Of a stretch of 17,708 nt of DNA, positions 920 to 17,044 are shown piece by piece; the stretch's first letter is position 1; every line of letters begins with the position of its first letter. The notes under the pieces were generated by a model. It did no database searches. It saw only the letters and a program-made list of their open reading frames with translations, and had not been told where the DNA came from. The stretch lies in IMG/VR virus record IMGVR_UViG_2706794691_000004; one strand, given 5' to 3'. Origin of the DNA: a virus. Its lineage: Duplodnaviria; Heunggongvirae; Uroviricota; Caudoviricetes. A program made the translations under genes and the position numbers.

Positions 920-941
920 TCCTCACGCTCCATAAACGACA

Positions 942-962
942 AAACCGCCCGCAGGCGGTTTC
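942..962 (-). other. Stem-loop in the I-J spacer (AAACCGCC-UGCG-GGCGGUUU on the mRNA, followed by a U-rich run)
   Basis: Inverted repeat read directly; sits in the 60-nt gap between the I stop (980) and the J start (919). I believe the same hairpin exists in lambda. Confidence 0.4.
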
Positions 963-3301: not shown

Positions 3302-6300
3302 TTAGCCACTTAACATTCCCCCATCACGTCGCATATTTAACAGATTGCCCTGCACCCGCTGATCAACCATCCCCATAAGTGCTTTTATTGCCTGAGGGCC
3401 AATCTCTCCATTCTGGCCGTCATTTTGAATAGTGATTTGGTATACAGGGGCATAGGTAATATCTCCGCCTCCATTACCACTTTTACTATTAATAGCTCTG
3501 ACACCAAGAGAACCATCGGAAGTTCGTGTTAATGGCATAATGGCTTCCGGTCCAGCCTCACCAAAAACACCAGCCCCTTTTGCAAAAGCAAAAAATTGCG
3601 GGGAATCATAAATACCGTTCGAATACGTGCTCAATGACGGAGACTCATAAACACCGCCCTTTGCATTCGGAATAAATTTACTAATAGCACTCCCGATAGT
3701 TCCTAAAATCCCCCCAGAAGAACTGTTACTAATGCTGTCGAAAATCCCAGTAATTGAAGCCTTTAATGCTATTCGACTAAGATCCGAAATCACGGAAGTA
3801 GCGAAAGAACGAAAATTTGCCTTGCCTGTCGTGACAAAATCACCCAGCGCATCGGTCATCCCATCAAACATCTGAGTCGTGGTTGATTTTATCTGCTCAC
3901 TGATATCCTTAGTGTCATCCAGCCAGTTATTGAATCCCTGGGAGGCACCACTAACCCAGTCTCCTGCCTGAATATCGAGCTGCTCGTTTTTCTGTCTGAC
4001 AATTTCTTTTTCCCGTTCCAGAGCATCATTCAGAGCCTGCATTTTCTCTTGAAAAACATGATCTGACATTCCACGGGATTTATCTGCATAGTCACGTTCA
4101 AGTTGCAGACGCTGATTGTTATATCCATGTTCAATCCGCAGTAATTCCTGCTGGCGNNNNNNNNNNNNNNNNNNNNNNNNNNNNNNNNNNNNNNNNNNNN
4201 NNNNNNNNNNNNNNNNNNNNNNNNNNNNNNNNNNNNNNNNNNNNNNNNNNNNNNNNNNNNNNNNNNNNNNNNNNNNNNNNNNNNNNNNNNNNNNNNNNNN
4301 NNNNNNNNNNNNNNNNNNNNNNNNNNNNNNNNNNNNNNNNNNNNNNNNNNNNNNNNNNNNNNNNNNNNNNNNNNNNNNNNNNNNNNNNNNNNNNNNNNNN
4401 NNNNNNNNNNNCCACTTAACCAGTTCCTGTTCAGAGGAACTTAATTTAACGGTCAACTCAGCTTGTGAACTTAGTAACGCATTCTGTTGATTCAGATGAT
4501 CAATCATTCGTTGGGCTGCATCATCAGAATAACCTTTCGCCTTTGGTTGCTTTGGATCTTTATAACGCTCATTTATTTGAGCGATAAGATTATTATATTC
4601 TTCCTTTGAATACTGATTCTTTAGCTTTTCCAGTTTTGCAAGTTCACTAGCTCTCTGCTGCTCCCGGGTCTGATATTGTTTTGAAAAGGCATCTGCTCTC
4701 TGTCTGAGTTCAATTCCTTCCTGTTGTCGCTTGTTGTAATCGTTTATTGATGAATTTAGTACGTCCTGAGCAATTTTTTCTGCTTGAAGTACGCCCAATT
4801 GCTGCTTTAATCGTGCCAGCCTTTTATTTTGAGCTCCGCCATCTCCAATGCCACCTAACCCGAAAACTCCGGGTCGGGTATTTTTTTCTATTTCATCAAT
4901 TTGACGGAGAACATCTGAGATTTTTTGATCAAGGGAGGCCTCACGGCCAATATCCAGCATGGAATCCCATGCCCATTTTGCGGAGTCTGCGACAGCTTTC
5001 CATGCAGTCTCAAGATAACCAAGATTTTCTTTAATCTGGTTGGTGCGCTGGATCATTGAGGATGAGTATTCTTCTGTCGCAATGCGGGCGGCCTCCTGCT
5101 GGTTCCCTTCATCCTGTAGCGCCTTAATCTGGTTATAAGTCGCAAGTGTCAGAAAATGGTACTGATCATTAAGTTTTGATATGGCACTGACAGGATCCTT
5201 TGCAATTTCATTGAAGTCATTAACCAGTTGTTCGGTTGATATTCCTGTTACTTCGCTCGTTTTTACTATCGCTGTCGTCACTTGCTCCAGCGAACTGCTC
5301 GCTACCTTTCCCGAACGCACAAGCTGATTTAATACTGCCGCCGCAGCACCAGTTGTCGAATCAGCCGCATTCCCGGCACGTTGAGCTATATCGCCCAATT
5401 GCCCGCTGGTTGTCCCCAACTGATTTCCGGTAAGAATAAGAGATTTATTAAATTCGTCCTGCTCCTGAGAGCCTTTATAGTAAGCCAGTCCTAAGACCCC
5501 AACGGCTGCTGCGGCCAGGGTAAAAGGATTAATTAATCCCAGCACATAAGAACCTACACCTTTGATCGCCGGGCCAATCCCACCGAACATATCTTTTAGC
5601 TGGCCGCCCTGCTGCATTAACACCATAAATGGCGACTGACCAGTGGACAACCCAACAACAATATCCGTCATTTGTACAGGCAACATGCGCATAGCAAAAG
5701 CCGTTTGTTTTGCCGACATTCCGGTTTTGCTTAATTGTGATTGAGTAACCTCAAGCTCACTCCGCATAGCACGAAGTTTTCCAGAAAGCTCCTCATACAT
5801 TTCAGGAGAAAGCATCCCCTTAGCTTTTGCTTCATTGAGCTGTTTCTGTTGTTCTACCAGACGATTAAAAGCAGTTCCGACAGGATCAAGTTGAGCAATC
5901 AGACGTTGCAAAGCAACAACCTGTTCATCATGCGCTTTTGCTGCTTCTCGCTCTGCCTGAGCCTCTCCGGTAAGCTCTCGCCGTGTTTCCTGTATTTTTC
6001 GGCTATAATTCTCAAACTGAGAACCATTTATTTTCCCGGATGCAAACGCAGCATTAAGTTCATCATGCTGTTGTTCAAGATTTCTTAGCGCCGCAGCCAG
6101 AGGGTCGATCTTGTCCAGCATTCTTTGAAAGGCCTGAGCCTGCGCTTNNNNNNNNNNNNNNNNNNNNNNNNNNNNNNNNNNNNNNNNNNNNNNNNNNNNN
6201 NNNNNNNNNNNNNNNNNNNNNNNNNNNNNNNNNNNNNNNNNNNNNNNNNNNNNNNNNNNNNNNNNNNNNNNNNNNNNNNNNNNNNNNNNNNNNNNNNNNN

Positions 6301-6555
6301 NNNNNNNNNNNNNNNNNNNNNNNNNNNNNNNNNNNNNNNNNNNNNNNNNNNNNNNNNNNNNNNNNNNNNNNNNNNNNNNNNNNNNNNNNNNNNNNNNNNN
6401 NNNNNNNNTGTTGCCTTAGTCACTTTCCCTGCGCTATTTGCAGCAGTTTCCCCAGCCTGCGTCATTTTGACTAATGAGGAGGTCAGATTGTCAGCATTAT
6501 TTTTCGCTCCAGTGCTATCAATAATTATTGCGAGACGCGAGGTTTGCTCTGCCAT
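3302..6555 (-). CDS. Tail tape measure protein (about 1080 aa, interrupted by two N runs)
   Basis: ATG at 6555 preceded by AGGAG; N-terminus [14 protein letters not shown]...; [37 protein letters not shown] matches the conserved lambda gpH N-terminal motif as recalled; long Q/E/K-rich coiled-coil middle; C-terminus ...[38 protein letters not shown] resembles the lambda gpH C-terminus. Frames on either side of the N run at 6148..6408 differ. Confidence 0.85.
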
Positions 6556-6573
6556 TTATTAAAACTCCTGACA

Positions 6574-6600
6574 ACAAAAAACCCACCGCGAAGTGGGTTT
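6574..6600 (-). terminator. Intrinsic-terminator-like hairpin immediately upstream of the tape measure RBS
   Basis: mRNA reads AAACCCAC-UUCGCG-GUGGGUUU followed by UUUUGUUGUC, then AGGAG and the tape measure ATG. Confidence 0.5.
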
Positions 6601-6720
6601 CAGGCGACATAATAGTAGATATAGCGATTACGAGGCCACGCAATGCTTTTCTCCAGGAGCATCATCGATTTAATTAAAGACACCATCACATCTCTGTAAC
6701 AGAGTGTACGTAATTAACAA

Positions 6721-7478
6721 CTACACACACTGCTCCTGAAAATACTGGTCATCCAGTGCAAAGATCACTGCTTCAAATTCATCGCGCTCAATCAATACCG
6801 GATGAGTGGCTAAATATTCATTTATCTCTGTCAGAGATAAAGGCAAAGGCACCCCAGCCATTCCAGCATAACGTCGGGCACGGGATATTACCGAATAGGC
6901 GTACAACAACTCCTTAAGCACCGGGTCTATTTCTGGTTCCGGTATCGGTGGCAACCTGAGTTTTTCTCGCTTCCATCTTGCCTTTTCCCCCCTTTCTCCC
7001 CCGAACTCCGATAACCACCGCTGGGCAGCTATGGCTTTTTTATCGTATCCTGCTTCTGCTGCTCTTTACCCTGGGCGATGCTGGCTGCTTCTGCAAGGAT
7101 CTGCCAGTACAACTCTGGATTCTGCTTAAGCAGCGCGATCCCTCGTTCTGCCGTATATTCCAGTGCAACCTCAACACCATTAACCAGTTCACCAACCCCT
7201 TTCCAGTCTTTCAGCAGATAACGAGCGGCATTATCAATGAGTAAATCATCAACAGAATCCACCTCGGAAACCTTTGAAATATCAAACTCCTTCGTTCCGA
7301 CGTGCAAACTGGCATCCATTTTCTCAATGTGGCGACGGATTAATGCATTACGGGAGCGATACTGATCGTTATCGCTGCTTGCCACCAACAGTTTTAACCC
7401 GTCTACAGGTTTTAAGTCCTTCATTGGCGTAAACCAGCGTTCTCCACCAATGATAATTTTCTGATTAAGAATAAACAT
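6721..7478 (-). CDS. Tail assembly chaperone G-T fusion product made by programmed -1 frameshift
   Basis: The -1 frame relative to G is open from the slippery site to a TAG at 6721-6723, encoding ...KK/AIAAQRWLSEFGGERGEKARWKREKLRLPPIPEPEIDPVLKELLYAYSVISRARRYAGMAGVPLPLSLTEINEYLATHPVLIERDEFEAVIFALDDQYFQEQCV; position between major tail and tape measure genes matches the conserved G/G-T arrangement. Confidence 0.7.
7029..7478 (-). CDS. Tail assembly chaperone (lambda G analogue)
   Basis: Start at MFILNQKIIIGGERWF (ATG 7478, GAGGT 5 nt upstream); acidic ~149-aa protein; stop TAG at 7029-7031. Confidence 0.75.
   Translation of the reverse strand: MFILNQKIIIGGERWFTPMKDLKPVDGLKLLVASSDNDQYRSRNALIRRHIEKMDASLHVGTKEFDISKVSEVDSVDDLLIDNAARYLLKDWKGVGELVNGVEVALEYTAERGIALLKQNPELYWQILAEAASIAQGKEQQKQDTIKKP
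7035..7041 (-). other. Slippery heptamer A_AAA_AAG for the -1 ribosomal frameshift, two codons before the G stop
   Basis: mRNA reads ...GAU ACG AUA AAA AAG CCA UAG; the heptamer is the same class as the E. coli dnaX shift site. Confidence 0.65.
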
Positions 7479-7538
7479 CCATAACCTCATTCAATGCGTC
7501 CCCCTGTAGGGCAGTACCACAGGAGGAATAACGGAAAA

Positions 7539-8301
7539 TCAACTAATCGCCTCAGCACTGGCTTTTGCGATCACGGCAGCCGGGGAATTTTTTTTTCTGG
7601 TTATCGTAGGTGCTTCATCTGCTGCGGTAATGCTCAATTGAACCTGGATAATGTCGCTATTACCCCCATCAGGCCATTCACCTGACACCTGAACCTTCGG
7701 GAAACTGAAAGTGTATGCCCCCTCTCCATTCGAAAGCGTGAAGCTGAACGGAACTGTTTCTCCAGTCAGTGTTTTACTCCAGATTTCCCACGCGGCTTTA
7801 GACCATGANNNNNNNNNNNNNNNNNNNNNNNNNNNNNNNNNNNNNNNNNNNNNNNNNNNNNNNNNNNNNNNNNNNNNNNNNNNNNNNNNNNNNNNNNNNN
7901 NNNNNNNNNNNNNNNNNNNNNNNNNNNNNNNNNNNNNNNNNNNNNNNNNNNNNNNNNNNNNNNNNNNNNNNNNNNNNNNNNNNNNNNNNNNNNNNNNNNN
8001 NNNNNNNNNNNNNNNNNNNNNNNNNNNNNNNNNNNNNNNNNNNNNNNNNNNNNNNNNNNNNNNNNNNNNNNNNTTGACCCCAGCGAAATTTGGTACCAAC
8101 ATCACCGCCGACATCCACAGTGCCAGGCGTCGCCCCCTGAGCCATCCGGGAGCCACCAATCTCATTATTTTCGCCTTTATTCTGGGTGGGTTTTACTCCC
8201 CAGCTTGTGCGTTTTAATAAACTCCAGTCACCACTTGCTGGCGTAGTGCCTGCAACCGTCTCCCGGATAAATGCCGAGATAACCTTTGCACCTGAACTCA
8301 C
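7539..8301 (-). CDS. Major tail (tube) protein, interrupted by an N run
   Basis: GTG start at 8301 with AGGAGG 6 nt upstream (MSSGAKVISAFIRETVAGTT...); C-terminal segment ...FSFTLSNGEGAYTFSFPKVQVSGEWPDGGNSDIIQVQLSITAADEAPTI; located directly upstream of the chaperone gene. Frames differ across the N run at 7809..8073. Confidence 0.7.
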
Positions 8302-8327
8302 AGGAGCCTCCTATGTCATTAATTGCG

Positions 8328-8720
8328 CTAGAGCGCGCGATATGGAATTTGAAGATTAAGCTGGAACCAGCCATTCTTTTCGCCAACGGCTATTGAGGAA
8401 ACAGCCTGGTAACTGAGACGATCGTCATCCTGAAACTCAAACAGTTCCCGCAATTTATCGGCTGTCTCAGTAATGAGTTTTGAACCAGAACCTGCGGGGA
8501 CAAATAACTGAATAATGATTATCCCCGTGCGATAAACAACCGGCCCCGCGCCAATTTCATTAACTCCAGCCTGCCCGGGAATATTACTTAACCGCGCCCA
8601 GATTAACTTACCGGAAGGATCGAACGTTGGCCCGTTCGGATACAATACGTCTTTTCCATCAATAATCGTCTGTGCCGTCATTCTGGAAATAACCGTATTT
8701 CTGATTTCAGTAAACTTCAT
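8328..8720 (-). CDS. Tail terminator / tail completion protein (gpU-like size and position)
   Basis: 130-aa ORF MKFTEIRNTVISRMTAQTII...; directly upstream of the major tail gene; ATGA start/stop overlap with the preceding gene. Confidence 0.5.
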   Translation of the reverse strand: MKFTEIRNTVISRMTAQTIIDGKDVLYPNGPTFDPSGKLIWARLSNIPGQAGVNEIGAGPVVYRTGIIIIQLFVPAGSGSKLITETADKLRELFEFQDDDRLSYQAVSSIAVGEKNGWFQLNLQIPYRAL

Positions 8721-9097
8721 TTGTAAGCCTGTAAAACACCATGAAAAGCGTTGGCATACACGCCAGTTGGCGCTTGTTGTGAATGACCGTTTTCAAGAGC
8801 CTCTGCATAAGGAAGGTTATTCTGGATATAAATAACCCCGTAATTTGCAGCTTTCGAAATAACCCCGATCCCACGCTGAACAGCAATCGTACCGTTCGGA
8901 TCCACGTTATCAGATATACCAAAATCGGGATGCTGTAACGACACCAGGTTGTTATTTCTGAAACGTCCGGTATCAACCGGAGCAGCAATATCAATAGCAG
9001 TAAGAATCTGCATAGCGATGTAGCGAATCTTCAGCCCTACATCTTCCTCAATCATCCCGGCAAATATTGACGGTTCTATATCCCATGCCTTTGCCAT
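8717..9097 (-). CDS. Head-tail connector protein, HK97 gp10-like family
   Basis: 126-aa ORF with APVDTGRFRNN motif that I associate with the HK97 gp10 family; translationally coupled on both sides. Confidence 0.55.
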   Translation of the reverse strand: MAKAWDIEPSIFAGMIEEDVGLKIRYIAMQILTAIDIAAPVDTGRFRNNNLVSLQHPDFGISDNVDPNGTIAVQRGIGVISKAANYGVIYIQNNLPYAEALENGHSQQAPTGVYANAFHGVLQAYK

Positions 9098-9481
9098 TTA
9101 CGCTCTCCTTAACTGGATAGAGTAAACTGATGCGGAAGGATCTACACTTGCTGTAATTACCTCGTATCGTTGTAACTGCCTTGATACAGGATCATAAATC
9201 TCAATAATATGGTCGACAGCTGGTTTATCCGTAACCTCGCATACCAGAGCGGTTAATTTAAGGTCACCATGCAAAATATTAATCCCATCAATTCTGCCCA
9301 GCTTATAACGTGTCAACACGCCTCGCCCGGTATAGATTGCGGTTGATTCGCCGCCAGTTTCCGTCACAGGATCCCAGTGCCGGTGCGTAACGTAAGAACC
9401 AGAAAAATCACTCACGGCGTCCGCTAAATCCTCATCAAAAGCAGCGGCAACCTCTGACTGAATCTCTTCACGAAGCCCCAT
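9098..9481 (-). CDS. Head-tail connector / head closure protein (family uncertain)
   Basis: 127-aa ORF MGLREEIQSEVAAAFDEDLADAVSDF...; GAGGGGGG RBS; sits between other connector genes. Confidence 0.45.
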   Translation of the reverse strand: MGLREEIQSEVAAAFDEDLADAVSDFSGSYVTHRHWDPVTETGGESTAIYTGRGVLTRYKLGRIDGINILHGDLKLTALVCEVTDKPAVDHIIEIYDPVSRQLQRYEVITASVDPSASVYSIQLRRA

Positions 9482-9491
9482 TATCCCCCCC

Positions 9492-9803
9492 TCACAACCC
9501 TGACTTGTGAGCGACTAAGTCCGTACGGNNNNNNNNNNNNNNNNNNNNNNNNNNNNNNNNNNNNNNNNNNNNNNNNNNNNNNNNNNNNNNNNNNNNNNNN
9601 NNNNNNNNNNNNNNNNNNNNNNNNNNNNNNNNNNNNNNNNNNNNNNNNNNNNNNNNNNNNNNNNNNNNNNNNNNNNNNNNNNNNNNNNNNNNNNNNNNNN
9701 NNNNNNNNNNNNNNNNNNNNNNNNNNNNNNNNNNNNNNNNNNNNNNNNNNNNNNNNNNNNNNNNNNNNNNNNNNNNNNNNNNNNNNNNNNNNNNAGTGAT
9801 CAT
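9492..9803 (-). CDS. Probable head-tail adaptor, almost entirely masked
   Basis: ATG at 9803 preceded by GGAG; only MIT... and ...RTDLVAHKSGL are readable; rest is N (9529..9794). Confidence 0.3.
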   Translation of the reverse strand: MITXXXXXXXXXXXXXXXXXXXXXXXXXXXXXXXXXXXXXXXXXXXXXXXXXXXXXXXXXXXXXXXXXXXXXXXXXXXXXXXXXXXXXXXXXRTDLVAHKSGL

Positions 9804-9806
9804 GTG

Positions 9807-9983
9807 TTACTCCTGAGTTTTCCAGCCCATAGCCTTCCAGTTGTCAACTTCATCAGGATGAACATTAGCGATAGTTGGTGCGCCGGGAAACATCTGATAA
9901 TCGGTCACCATAACCACTAACTCAATTTGCGTTTTTTGTGCGGCTTCACGCTGTGCTCTTTGCTCTTTAGTTAATCCGGCCAT
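9807..9983 (-). CDS. Small hypothetical protein (58 aa), absent from the ORF track
   Basis: ATG at 9983 after a G-rich stretch; translation MAGLTKEQRAQREAAQKTQIELVVMVTDYQMFPGAPTIANVHPDEVDNWKAMGWKTQE; its last codons CAGGAGUAA supply the RBS for the gene starting at 9803. Confidence 0.35.
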   Translation of the reverse strand: MAGLTKEQRAQREAAQKTQIELVVMVTDYQMFPGAPTIANVHPDEVDNWKAMGWKTQE

Positions 9984-9993
9984 ATGCCCCCCA

Positions 9994-10018
9994 TTAAAAA
10001 TGGGGCCGAAGCCCCGTT
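9994..10018 (-). terminator. Intrinsic terminator just downstream of the major capsid gene
   Basis: mRNA reads GGGGC-UUCG-GCCCC followed by AUUUUUAAU, starting about 10 nt after the capsid stop codon. Confidence 0.6.
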
Positions 10019-10025
10019 TGAATGT

Positions 10026-11165
10026 TTAACCAAGAATCAGACAACCATGTGCCGGCTTCACTGATGAAACACCCCATGCCAGTCCAACTTCATAGCGCAC
10101 CTGGCGATACTGACGATACAGTGCAATCTGGAACGTAATCCCTGAAATCGGGTCCGTAACATTCATTACATCATCAGCATTATCGCCACCTTCCGGCATT
10201 GCCGGAGTACGGGATGCCAGCAGAAACGCGTTGCGATCAAACGCCATATTTGCAGTAAAGGCCCCAACAACTGTGATGGCAGTATCATCGGCCAGATCCT
10301 GACGCAGTCCGGGCGCTGCAAGAGTAATCAGATTGCTGGTCGCTGCTGCCACAACATACTGATTCGGATCACCAGCGAACGTAACAATCTGACCTGCAGA
10401 AATACTCCCCGAACCAGTATCAATGGAAATAAGAACATCGCCTTCTTTTTTCTCTCCATTCACGAGATAACCAGTTGCAGCAACCTTTGGCGCTCGTTTC
10501 ACACCTGCCGAACTGTGAATATTGAATCCCTCCAGACGCCCCAACACGCCCTCACGCAGTAGCTGTTCAGTGCCGGATTCATTCACTTTAAACAATACAG
10601 ACTGTTTTCCGCGCAAATTAGCAATGGCAGTGGAGCCAAGCACCATCTGCAGATCGGTTGTCGGTGCGCCGTTATCCTCCAGAACCTGACGAGCCAGAGC
10701 AGCATCAGAAAGATCATCTTTAACACCAAACGGCGTTGTCCCTGCGGTTCCCACGGCGCGGGAAGCACCGAAATACAACGCACCAAGATCAGCCTCAACC
10801 TCGTTTGCAAGGGCGCGAAAAGCCTGCTTGAACTGATCAGCCAGAATGGTGTTGTAAGTCCCTGAAGGGCCAAGAGCCAGTTGTTCTTCACCATTCCATT
10901 TAACCGGTGCCATTTTGGATTTAGTAATTTTTACATCAACAGTGCCAATATTTTGATCACCGGTATTCGGAGCTGACGGCCCCGGTACGATATCTTCGGT
11001 TTTCGCCTCAGGCGCAACTGGCGCGGTTACCGTCTGATCTTTTGCTGCGGCGTCAGCTTTTGCGTTTTTTGCTACCGCAGGGATAAAACCTACCTGCTCA
11101 CGGGATACAACATCCAGGGCGGTATAAATAGTCGGGATCAACCCGGTCAGGGTATTTCCAGCCAT
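10026..11165 (-). CDS. Major capsid protein
   Basis: Start chosen at MAGNTLTGLIPTIYTALDVVSREQ (ATG 11165, AAGGA about 10 nt upstream); 379 aa; position after the scaffold gene; strong terminator immediately downstream. Not lambda gpE-like. Confidence 0.7.
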   Translation of the reverse strand: MAGNTLTGLIPTIYTALDVVSREQVGFIPAVAKNAKADAAAKDQTVTAPVAPEAKTEDIVPGPSAPNTGDQNIGTVDVKITKSKMAPVKWNGEEQLALGPSGTYNTILADQFKQAFRALANEVEADLGALYFGASRAVGTAGTTPFGVKDDLSDAALARQVLEDNGAPTTDLQMVLGSTAIANLRGKQSVLFKVNESGTEQLLREGVLGRLEGFNIHSSAGVKRAPKVAATGYLVNGEKKEGDVLISIDTGSGSISAGQIVTFAGDPNQYVVAAATSNLITLAAPGLRQDLADDTAITVVGAFTANMAFDRNAFLLASRTPAMPEGGDNADDVMNVTDPISGITFQIALYRQYRQVRYEVGLAWGVSSVKPAHGCLILG

Positions 11166-11263
11166 AATTAAATATTCCTTAAAAATTTGCGTAATTGTGA
11201 ATAGATGGAGTAATGAGCTATCCAGCCCTGACACCAGCTCCCATCCGGAAGCTGACAAATGTG

Positions 11264-12028
11264 TTAATCAACGATTGTGATACCGTCTTTCAATGCGTTT
11301 TGCTTACCTGCAACATCCAGTGCATCAAAAGCAGAGCGTTTCATCGTTTTCTGACCAATATCATGCTGTGTCGGACGGGAGCCGCCGCCATTGTTGCCAC
11401 TGGCTTTCAGGATGTAGTCTTTCTGAGGGTAATTTTCGACAAGGAACTCCAGCGCCTCATCAAACTGCGCCAGTTCGCCAGGCTTCGCGCGGGAATAAAT
11501 TTTGTTGCCGGAAGCGTCATAAGCAACGATCCTCCCTTCTTCCACTTTGAATGCCTGCCCGAAGCGGGCTTGTAATAAATCTGCCGGAATCGCAATTTTA
11601 TCGGCAATATATTTTGAACCCGCAAAACTACCGCCAATCATAGAATCGTAAAGCTGCTTCTCCAGCATCTGAGAGCGTTGCTTTTCTTCATCTAATTGCT
11701 GCTGAAAATTTTTCGTAATTTCTGCCTTAACCTGGTCAACCTGTCCCGCATCGAGCAGCTTTTTCTGGTCGATTTTTGACAGCATTTCCAGTGCCTCGAT
11801 CGCCTTCTTCGGGTCTTCGATAGCGGCAAACTTAGCCAGTTTTTCCTCTGCAGCTTCTTTAGCCAGGCGATGATTTTTTGCCTCGCCATTAAGCTCTGTA
11901 ATTTTTTTTGTCGCCAGCGGTGCATCGAAGCCAATTTCTTTACCATCGTCGTGCACATAAACTGGCAGGCCAGCAGTATCAATTTCTGCGTATTGTTTTC
12001 CGTTAATCTCGACCGTTTTCAGTTTCAT
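11264..12028 (-). CDS. Capsid scaffolding protein
   Basis: Start chosen at MKLKTVEINGKQYAEID (ATG 12028); charged, helix/coiled-coil-like sequence ...LAKEAAEEKLAKFAAIEDPKKAIEALEMLSKIDQKKLL...; position between minor head and capsid genes. Confidence 0.6.
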   Translation of the reverse strand: MKLKTVEINGKQYAEIDTAGLPVYVHDDGKEIGFDAPLATKKITELNGEAKNHRLAKEAAEEKLAKFAAIEDPKKAIEALEMLSKIDQKKLLDAGQVDQVKAEITKNFQQQLDEEKQRSQMLEKQLYDSMIGGSFAGSKYIADKIAIPADLLQARFGQAFKVEEGRIVAYDASGNKIYSRAKPGELAQFDEALEFLVENYPQKDYILKASGNNGGGSRPTQHDIGQKTMKRSAFDALDVAGKQNALKDGITIVD

Positions 12029-12085
12029 ATTAGTACCTGGTTTAAGTCTTCCGACAGTTACGCTGCTCACCATCCGGATCGCAGC

Positions 12086-12113
12086 AATAAAAAAGGCCAC
12101 CCGAAGGTAGCCT
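12086..12113 (-). terminator. Intrinsic-terminator-like hairpin between the minor head and scaffold genes
   Basis: mRNA reads AGGCUACC-UUCG-GGUGGCCU followed by UUUUUUAUUG. Confidence 0.5.
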
Positions 12114-15971: not shown

Positions 15972-17044
15972 TCCTTACTCTGGCATCAACCACATTAATA
16001 TTGATCGCCACAGGCTGGGGATGTTCATTATCTTCCACCGTTTCGATCTCTTTGCGCAGCTTCTGGTTTTCCATTCTGCGCCGTTCAATTTCCAGTTCCC
16101 GTAGCCGCTTATCTGCACATAAAGCCCCGCCAGCAGAAAACAAACGCAACAATTCACGCCGGGCGGCAGCCTTATCCTCCAGCAGGATCTCAACGCCGAA
16201 TTTTCCGAATTTTGCCCCTGCATATAATTGCCGCGCATCCCCATCAAGCAGAGTGGTATCAGCCATATAAAGCTGTCCCGTTCCCTCACCGCAGCACTTC
16301 GGGCAGTCCGGATTGGGTATGGCGTTATCAACAAAGCCGAGGCCTCCATATTCCGGTTCGGGTTTGCCATCTCTGGAAGCCTGCGCCGCTGCCTTGTCGA
16401 ATTCTGCTATATCGCGCCACTGGTAGAGATGATTCTCGCCCCAGCAATAACGGCAGTTAACACGGCGAAATTGTGCAAGCTGATTGGGGTCGGCCAGGAC
16501 AATAGCCATCAACTGACTCACTAGTAAATCCAGGTCTGCGGTATAGCGTTTCTGGTACTGATTGCGGAAGTAGCTGANNNNNNNNNNNNNNNNNNNNNNN
16601 NNNNNNNNNNNNNNNNNNNNNNNNNNNNNNNNNNNNNNNNNNNNNNNNNNNNNNNNNNNNNNNNNNNNNNNNNNNNNNNNNNNNNNNNNNNNNNNNNNNN
16701 NNNNNNNNNNNNNNNNNNNNNNNNNNNNNNNNNNNNNNNNNNNNNNNNNNNNNNNNNNNNNNNNNNNNNNNNNNNNNNNNNNNNNNNNNNNNNNNNNNNN
16801 NNNNNNNNNNNNNNNNNNNNNNNNNNNNNNNNNNNTGTGCAGTCTGCGCAGATTTTTTCTGCGCACTTTTTTGCGCAGTTTTGCACATTTCTGTCTGCGC
16901 ATTTTTCGGAGTTTTTTTGATGTAACGACGGGCTGTTGCGTAATTCAGTCCCCTTGCTTCACACCATGCCACCGGAGATATACCGGAGCGGGTGTATTCA
17001 GCAATATACTCCTGCTGCAACGCCCCCCAGTCCGGTCTGCTCAT
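15943..17044 (-). CDS. Terminase small subunit (N-terminal HTH segment plus Cys-rich C-terminal segment; may be two genes)
   Basis: N-terminus MSRPDWGALQQEYIAEYTRSGISPVAWCEARGLNYATARRYIKK resembles a small-terminase HTH; after the N run the ORF encodes CRYCW...DCPKCCGEG and a basic coiled tail ...RLRELEIERRRMENQKLRKEIE, overlapping the large terminase start. Frames differ across the N run at 16578..16835. Confidence 0.55.

Follow-up and report, generated by a model that had tools for sequence, protein, structure and literature searches.

The stretch of DNA analysed here (hereafter, the window) comprises 17,708 nucleotides (nt) of a tailed virus of the class Caudoviricetes, recorded in IMG/VR as IMGVR_UViG_2706794691_000004, and covers its late (structural) operon, in which terminator-like RNA hairpins occupy the spacers between several genes. 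All genes in the window lie on the minus strand, in the order terminase, DUF4055 portal, MuF minor head protein, DUF6651 scaffold-like protein, P22-family coat protein, head-completion and tail proteins, G and G-T tail chaperones (ydaY), tape measure protein (TMP), M, L, K, I and the start of J. The sequence is 99.7% identical to a prophage of Escherichia coli NCTC10444 (L003; labels of this kind denote loci used for comparison). Three genes that mark the Rac prophage, trkG, ynaK and ydaY, are present there as well, which identifies the window as the late operon of a lambdoid phage of the Rac-like type that is intact and resides as a prophage in E. coli. The tail genes M, L, K, I and J are ~92-95% identical to those of lambda-like phages (mEp460, Ayreon, and others). 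Within the head module, the scaffold-like gene (11264-12028, minus strand), recognized through the Prokaryotic Genome Annotation Pipeline (PGAP) annotation of the 99.7% identical locus and Pfam DUF6651, and the coat gene (10026-11165, minus strand), whose homologues are named 'P22 phage major capsid protein family', form a cassette (10026..12028) flanked by 2 of the hairpins, H3 and H2. There are 8 masked N runs within the window, none of which touches hairpins H1 to H3.

The original prediction had placed 3 hairpins on the coding strand, at 12086..12113, 9994..10018 and 6574..6600, and they are located exactly there; we refer to them as H3, H2 and H1, respectively. H3 (12113-12094, minus strand; feature 12086..12113) reads AGGCUACC-UUCG-GGUGGCCU followed by U6AUU, lies between the stop codon of the MuF minor head gene (12133) and the ATG of the scaffold gene (12028), and constitutes helix 1 of a conserved scaffold leader. 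H2 (10015-10002, minus strand; feature 9994..10015), with the sequence GGGGC-UUCG-GCCCC followed by AUUUUUAAU, begins 11 nt past the coat stop codon (10028-10026) and directly precedes the ribosome-binding site of a 58-amino acid (aa) open reading frame (ORF). H1 (6601-6578, minus strand; feature 6571..6601) reads GAAACCCAC-UUCGCG-GUGGGUUU(U) with a U-rich tail or, written out, (GAA)ACCCAC-UUCGCG-GUGGGU(UUU), with ACCCAC/GUGGGU as its core. It resides within the 165-nt spacer after the G-T chaperone stop codon (6723-6721), and the TMP ribosome-binding site AGGAG (6569-6565; ATG at 6555) follows 9 nt downstream. The loop of H1 is not a canonical cUUCGg but either a UUCGCG hexaloop or a U.G-closed UCGC loop; given that the copy in Escherichia ruysiae is canonical (CCCAC-UUCG-GUGGG), the window copy bears a 2-nt loop insertion. 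A potential outer helix of 5 base pairs (bp) between the upstream stop-codon region and the TMP ribosome-binding site was dismissed as a chance pairing, being broken in E. ruysiae. Folding, which had been proposed as a check, gives free energies of -13.2, -9.6 and -12.3 kcal/mol for H3, H2 and H1, respectively. Terminator prediction on the minus strand, the second proposed check, recovers all 3 hairpins under strict settings and adds a fourth, H4, which had been missed: GAAACCGCC-UGCG-GGCGGUUUU with a U-rich tail, located between tail genes I and J (962-941, minus strand; feature 933..962).

The 4 hairpins have the build of intrinsic terminators, with stems of 5-10 bp, loops of 4-6 nt and folding free energies of -9.6 to -14.4 kcal/mol, each followed by a U tract (U6AUU for H3, U6GUUGU for H1, a weaker A + U5AAU for H2 and an interrupted U4GUCGUUUAU for H4). 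Under a strict definition of a terminator, in which the stem must be perfect and have 5 or more bp, 4 or more of them G-C, the loop must be a tetraloop and T must fill 5 or more of 7 positions, the coding strand of the window contains 4 sites and the other strand none; 1000 dinucleotide shuffles contained 0.146 sites on average and never more than 2. All 4 strict sites fall in intergenic spacers, which make up ~3% of the window. A lax scan yields 20 sites against 15.4 +/- 3.3 expected, i.e., not above chance, which is why the strict criteria were used instead. When the window was compared with Rfam 15, no match reached the gathering score, and searches there returned no family for any of the hairpins or for the leader.

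The conservation of the hairpins was assessed across 47 loci encoding relatives of the coat protein, with one genome per species, to which HK639, P22, lambda, a Klebsiella phage and a Caulobacter phage were added. A hairpin of the H3 type with a U6-7 tract is found 80-100 nt upstream of the scaffold ATG in every related locus, even where genes are inserted after the MuF gene, and in the HK639 record the homologous site is annotated as 'terminator'. When 38 sequences were aligned with a covariance model, each of the 7 base pairs of the H3 helix proved to have changed in a compensatory fashion; the U6-7 tract is essentially invariant, high-GC hosts included. After the coat stop codon, GGGGC-UNCG-GCCCC with a U-rich tail is present in nearly all Enterobacterales loci (about 30), with compensatory variants in L011 (GGGGA/UCCCC) and L012 (GGGGG/CCCCC). 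More distant loci, including the Caulobacter phage, carry strong but unrelated stems at this position. Hairpins of the H1 type, again with unrelated stems but with a U tract, are found 15-25 nt upstream of the TMP ATG in 5 lineages, and an identical copy of H1 persists in the cryptic Rac prophage of E. coli K-12 MG1655 (L004 5409-5435, corresponding to about 1,426,409-1,426,435 in the genome), where ydaY, the T frame and the beginning of the TMP gene (ynaA/tmpR) are likewise unchanged in sequence. The sequence of H4 is identical in the I-J spacer of lambda, and the records of Ayreon and HK639 both annotate a 'terminator' at the I-J junction, the one of HK639 having a different stem. Collectively, these comparisons indicate that the hairpins are under selection for position and structure.

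The same comparison removes the emphasis originally placed on UUCG-type loops as a special property shared by all of the hairpins. Not only is the H1 loop noncanonical, but the relatives display UCCG, UCAG, UACG, UAAC, UUAG, UGCG, CUCG and AUUAA at the equivalent positions, so that UUCG itself is not the conserved feature. According to PMC3972237 (citing Tuerk 1988 and d'Aubenton Carafa 1990), UUCG loops are long known and common in phage mRNA hairpins and rho-independent terminators.

Two of the junctions occupied by hairpins, GT-TMP (H1) and MuF-scaffold (H3), are insertion hot spots in the relatives and behave in a moron-like manner. Inserts are found between the G-T and TMP genes in L006, L009, L016, L022 and L024, and between the MuF and scaffold genes in L024-L027, L030, L033-L036, L040, L049 and L052. 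They encode lipoproteins, a TPR-like protein and small membrane ORFs, at times accompanied by tandem terminators. In the window itself, the GT-TMP spacer contains a 29-codon ORF (6600-6689, minus strand; MMVSLIKSMMLLEKSIAWPRNRYIYYYVA), the stop codon of which touches H1 and which may be a remnant of an inserted gene. As for the third junction, the spacer after the coat gene is nearly the same in the window (9978-10028) and in P22 (L053 6094-6140), with TAA, GGGGC-UNCG-GCCCC, a U-rich tract, GGAG and ATG following in the same succession; the P22 coat protein is not among the tblastn matches to the window coat. This spacer may serve as a conserved linker for recombination where two modules meet.

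It was originally argued that the genes downstream of each hairpin must still be expressed, and hence that transcription has to read through. This argument is supported: the hairpins are terminator-like, essential genes lie downstream, and a consensus scan of the window detects no sigma-70 promoter-like site after any hairpin or in any spacer. Promoter-like sites are in fact depleted in the window, with 8 found compared to 18.1 +/- 4.0 expected, about half the frequency in shuffled sequences. Late genes on one strand, without promoter-like sites in the spacers, are what a Q-antiterminated late operon looks like. In the near-identical NCTC10444 prophage, an upstream DUF1133 protein matches the Pfam family Phage_antitermQ, albeit marginally (26.1 bits against a cut-off of 26.0, E 8.6e-6), and ~370 nt downstream of this Q-like gene lies a promoter-like site (39977-39948) followed by a terminator (39920-39901); no Q-binding element was identified at that site. 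Further terminators are present on the late strand of this prophage before the holin gene and after the trkG moron, bringing the count to at least 7 canonical terminators between the likely late promoter and J. With terminators both upstream of and within the window, the late transcript must be termination-resistant. In lambda, the Q-modified polymerase ignores terminators across more than 20 kb. The lambdoid, Q-type antiterminated late transcript that had been suggested thus fits the DUF1133 gene and the additional terminators, and read-through by a modified polymerase is the best reading that we can infer.

We consider it probable that the hairpins are conditional terminators, which would halt transcription without Q and be read through with Q, and that they double as mRNA stability elements. 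According to this proposal, ordinary E. coli RNA polymerase would stop at H1 to H4, whether it arrives from stray initiation, by read-in from constitutively expressed morons such as trkG, or through transcription in the lysogen, whereas polymerase carrying a Q-type antiterminator from the late promoter would pass all of the hairpins, allowing the downstream genes to be expressed in the lytic cycle. The hairpins left in the mRNA would probably also block 3'-to-5' exonucleases. Such barriers would favor the bracketed segments, namely, scaffold-coat (between H3 and H2) and, in HK639-type relatives, the tail tube gene, and would disfavor low-copy genes downstream, such as those for TMP and the tip proteins after H1 and J after H4. 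The strict retention of U tracts at H3, at H1 and, within Enterobacterales, at H2 favors real termination of unmodified polymerase, and the bracketing of high-copy genes, together with distant post-coat hairpins that lack a U tract, favors a role as stabilizing mRNA boundaries. The original idea of mRNA 3' end stabilizers thereby gains some support, the absence of a U tract being frequent among the distant post-coat hairpins. Terminators inside the single-promoter late operon of P22-like phages, phage L among them, have been recognized before, their roles not being known; partial termination, or the halting of transcription that lacks antitermination, has been suggested (PMC8022706). The late gene clusters of SPP1 are likewise delimited by terminator-like stem-loops (PMC6316719). 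H1 to H4 are thus an ordinary and already annotated kind of late-operon terminator-like hairpin.

Several observations weigh against this proposal. The stoichiometric component of the original prediction ('capsid high, tape measure low') stands in part: an attenuation staircase fits H2, located after the coat gene, H1, located after the tube and chaperone genes and before the TMP gene, and H4. However, H3 precedes the genes for the 2 most abundant head proteins, scaffold and coat, and belongs to a larger leader, and in HK639-type relatives (HK639 and L021) a terminator lies directly upstream of the tail tube gene, so that a simple attenuation staircase fails. H2 has a stem of only 5 bp and an A between the stem and the U tract, and the U tract of H4 is interrupted. 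The post-coat hairpin lacks a U tract in 4 distant loci (L032, L038, L041 and L044), which suggests that, at H2, termination may be less important than the hairpin itself. The Q-like gene lies outside the window, and its Pfam score is only at the threshold. For the K-12 copy of H1, the tables of Adams 2021 list no 3' end, in a region that is probably barely transcribed and hence uninformative, and there are no SMRT-Cappable-seq entries at that copy. Finally, Sampson et al. 1988 reportedly found that the ratios of lambda late proteins are set mainly by translation initiation.

Among the alternatives, the one that fares best holds that the hairpins act exclusively after transcription, in mRNA stability or processing, as 3' exonuclease barriers or as 5' protective stem-loops after cleavage, bracketing high-copy genes without significant termination. 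The distant post-coat hairpins devoid of a U tract agree with it, as does bracketing on both sides of the scaffold-coat cassette and of the tail tube gene (HK639 and L021), and UUCG/UNCG loops are exceptionally stable (PMC3972237). Stability, however, needs no U tract, whereas that of H3 is essentially invariant even in high-GC hosts, and a U-rich tail still follows H2 in every Enterobacterales locus and the H1-type hairpins as well, unrelated though the stems of the latter are. Moreover, a stabilizing role is compatible with termination, and we regard the purely post-transcriptional version as unlikely. A second alternative would see in the hairpins mere relics or markers of mosaic module junctions, that is, moron-borne terminators or recombination 'linker' sequences with no role of their own in late expression. 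The insertions described above at the MuF-scaffold and GT-TMP junctions (extra genes, lipoprotein genes, tandem terminators), the 29-codon ORF ending at H1, and the H2 core and spacer that are almost identical in P22, despite a coat that escaped the tblastn search, are all in line with such an origin. Yet hairpins are also present in lineages without an insertion (e.g., L007 for H1), compensatory substitutions in the stems point to structural selection, and the same positions are occupied from gammaproteobacterial to alphaproteobacterial phages, making this explanation improbable. Still less credible is a third alternative, that the hairpins are translational signals that uncouple the downstream cistron, with the U-rich tract serving as an S1-binding enhancer for the adjoining ribosome-binding site. 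At H1, H2 and H4, the end of the U tract does lie 2 to 10 nt ahead of the following Shine-Dalgarno sequence, but the U tract of H3 is about 50 nt away from the scaffold Shine-Dalgarno, and the products encoded after H1, H2 and H4 (TMP, the 58-aa protein and J) are low-copy proteins for which an enhancer is unneeded. Chance inverted repeats in AT-rich spacers, to which the uninformative outcome under loose criteria might lend some color, are effectively refuted by the strict scan, by the placement of all 4 hairpins on the coding strand and in spacers, and by their conservation in relatives.

H3 is also the 5' part of a larger conserved structure. The leader of ~113 nt consists of H3, an invariant U6AUGCC tract and a series of hairpins with GGAU or GGAA tetraloops, 2 in the window and 3 (A-C) in HK639-type loci, where hairpin C abuts GGAG; over the ~80 nt from H3 to the scaffold ATG, its conservation exceeds that of the proteins. 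In the window, hairpin A (12085-12062, minus strand) is GCUGC-GAU-CC-GGAU-GG-UGA-GCAGC, in which a 3x3 internal loop separates the outer stem of 5 bp from an inner one of 2 bp capped by the GGAU loop, and hairpin B (12055-12046, minus strand) is GUC-GGAA-GAC, both located upstream of the scaffold ribosome-binding site and ATG. Two further hairpins with GGAU loops, D (11257-11232, minus strand; 11-bp stem) and E (11228-11215, minus strand; GGGCU-GGAU-AGCUC), occupy the 98-nt scaffold-coat spacer upstream of the coat Shine-Dalgarno AAGGAA (11180-11175). In some public records, the start of the scaffold gene is placed too far upstream, such that the coding sequence covers the terminator and the leader: ON470595 uses a GTG at window position 12100 (278 aa), and DMCA_008 is likewise overlong, whereas PGAP uses the ATG at 12028. 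The loci concerned are L001 12596-13432 and L175 1510-1620.

With a covariance model (R1) built from H3 and the GGAU/GGAA leader hairpins, 34 of the 35 sources searched yield a match ahead of the scaffold gene at E <= 1e-6, among them loci from Cupriavidus, Pararobbsia, Janthinobacterium and Xanthobacter, and a later search with R1 also recovers the element in 2 contigs of IMG/VR, in Klebsiella phage 5 LV-2017 and in Caulobacter phage DMCA (46.8 bits, E 1e-13). In this alignment, which is model-fitted and favors pairing, 96.9% of the cells are paired compared to 26-51% in slid controls, with double changes in 19 of 22 pairs. For D and E, a plain MAFFT alignment gives 89.9% paired cells versus 34-49% upon sliding, and 11 of 16 pairs are compensatory. 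The D/E hairpins, which also occur in betaproteobacterial and alphaproteobacterial loci and in Caulobacter phage DMCA, are present where the scaffold-coat gap is 85-100 nt and absent where it is 11-18 nt, the pattern expected if translational coupling lets the leader control both genes. Of the 120 matches in an IMG/VR pattern scan for D-E, 46 are genuine spacers preceding coat homologues, and ~60% are attributable to chance. One of the IMG/VR contigs (L120 1238-1375) contains CAGCC-GGAU-GGCUG, U7AUGCC and 3 more GGAU motifs upstream of an HK97-type-like capsid ORF with an N-terminal coiled-coil domain, and hence the GGAU leader may not be limited to the P22-type coat module; this contig is possibly an artefact of selection by the pattern search. 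A search of Rfam with the HK639 leader and spacers produced no match at E <= 1. The similarity of 'CGGATGCG' to repetitive extragenic palindromic (REP) elements is superficial: in REP elements GGAT sits in the stem, whereas here covariation puts GGAT in the loops. Taken as a whole, these sequence patterns allow a tentative proposal, that the leader of ~113 nt is a cis-regulatory RNA not described before, with H3 as its 5' module, in which a protein binding the GGA loops might set scaffold and coat translation or mRNA stability, with a phage protein (e.g., the scaffold), host CsrA and the ribosome as candidates.

CsrA recognizes GGA in the apical loop of short hairpins (PMC7366521). As in leaders controlled by CsrA/RsmA and in CsrB-type decoys, several GGA-loop hairpins are clustered here in a 5' leader, the last of which abuts the Shine-Dalgarno sequence, and in lineages with D/E the coat Shine-Dalgarno is AAGGAA. 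Hairpins A-E thus display the signature of a putative CsrA leader, at least 2 GGA motifs in loops with one at or overlapping the Shine-Dalgarno. CsrA loops are usually A(N)GGA penta- or hexaloops, whereas those of the leader are 4-nt GGAU/GGAA loops closed by C-G. In addition, the leader is found in phages of Burkholderiales, Xanthobacter and Caulobacter, and some such lineages, e.g., B. cepacia and S. meliloti, lack a chromosomal csrA (PMC7366521). Since the conservation of the leader reaches from prophages of E. coli as far as a Caulobacter phage, a partner that is universal or encoded by the phage is likelier than host CsrA. The predicted structure of the scaffold protein (predicted local distance difference test, pLDDT, 75) has a long coiled coil between a small beta domain at the N terminus and an alpha/beta domain at the C terminus, and a Foldseek search with it retrieved no PDB match with E < 2, to an RNA-binding fold or any other. 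The 58-aa protein encoded after the coat gene was considered as a CsrA-like factor and rejected, having no Pfam match. Our search of the literature on CsrA and phage capsid or scaffold leaders, on HK639 and on 3'-end mapping of lambda late transcripts found nothing relevant.

A few other features of the window were noted. The TMP gene is seemingly split into overlapping ORFs (6085-6555 and 3302-6121), which is probably an artefact of the N runs at 4157-4411 and 6148-6408, given that the near-identical prophage carries a single ORF of 1077 aa. In the ydaY-like ORF (7029-7490), a slippery heptamer A AAA AAG (7035-7041, minus strand) is located 2 codons ahead of the stop codon, and the -1 frame runs on into the ORF 6721-6954; by its sequence, this is a predicted programmed frameshift of the lambda G/G-T type for the tail assembly chaperones, and E. 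coli ydaY would accordingly be a remnant of a G chaperone. On the plus strand, which is noncoding here, 2 adjoining terminator-like hairpins with T-rich tails (TGCGCAGA...TCTGCGCA) lie in the small terminase region (16836-16901).

For the view of phage terminators, little changes, since terminators in the late operons of lambdoid phages were already annotated and a Rac-like example is now added to them. What the comparison contributes is evidence of selection, in that the hairpins stay in place and retain their fold while their sequences change, and they tend to lie on either side of high-copy genes. H1 to H4, together with intact Rac-like prophages and the K-12 copy of H1, constitute a convenient system for the ideas of lysogen insulation, attenuation and mRNA stabilization. 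The more valuable by-product is the GGAU-loop leader, which covaries strongly, matches no Rfam family and is widespread in prophages of Proteobacteria. Were it a translational operator, it would show how a common head module balances the synthesis of scaffold against that of coat.

Compared to known phages, the operon combines features of several. Like lambda, it would depend on one long late transcript (pR'-Q antitermination) that has to pass terminators, and lambda, too, has a hairpin, AUGGCCC-UUCG-GGGCCAU (cUUCGg), right after its major capsid gene E. In contrast to lambda, the head module is of the HK639/P22 type (DUF4055 portal, MuF, DUF6651 scaffold and P22-family coat) and the Q-like protein of the near-identical prophage is of the DUF1133 type. 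In lambda, the T and H frames overlap without a spacer, and there is no equivalent of H1.

The closest counterpart of H2 is found in P22, where AGGGGC-UGCG-GCCCCU, a U-rich tract and GGAG directly follow the stop codon of coat gene 5; this hairpin is nearly identical to H2 and is annotated as a stem_loop 'similar in location to stem-loops in phage HK97 and phage lambda'. H2 is, therefore, a post-capsid stem-loop in the sense of the P22 record. By contrast, the portal-scaffold gap of P22 is 13 nt, and its scaffold stop codon overlaps the coat start. Lacking both spacers, P22 has neither H3 nor a GGAU-hairpin leader, and it was for this reason rejected as a model for the leader. The scaffolding protein gene of P22 is said to be post-transcriptionally autoregulated (Wyckoff and Casjens 1985). 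That gene, too, belongs to a P22-family coat module, and autoregulation of this kind would offer a natural phage-encoded partner for the leader; the likeness ends with the leader itself, to which P22 has nothing comparable, and with the scaffold, which here belongs to a different family, DUF6651.

HK639 (NC_016158) resembles the window most fully. Its head module is homologous, with a coat that is 74.7% identical, its record annotates the terminators at the H3 position and the I-J junction mentioned above, a post-coat GGGGGC-UUCG-GCCCC hairpin is present though unannotated, and the scaffold gene is preceded by the same kind of leader, with 3 GGAU/GGAA hairpins. HK639 differs in that extra terminators flank its tail tube gene on both sides, a small ORF is inserted between the MuF gene and the H3-type terminator, and the scaffold-coat gap of 17 nt (5756 to 5774) is too short for the D/E hairpins.

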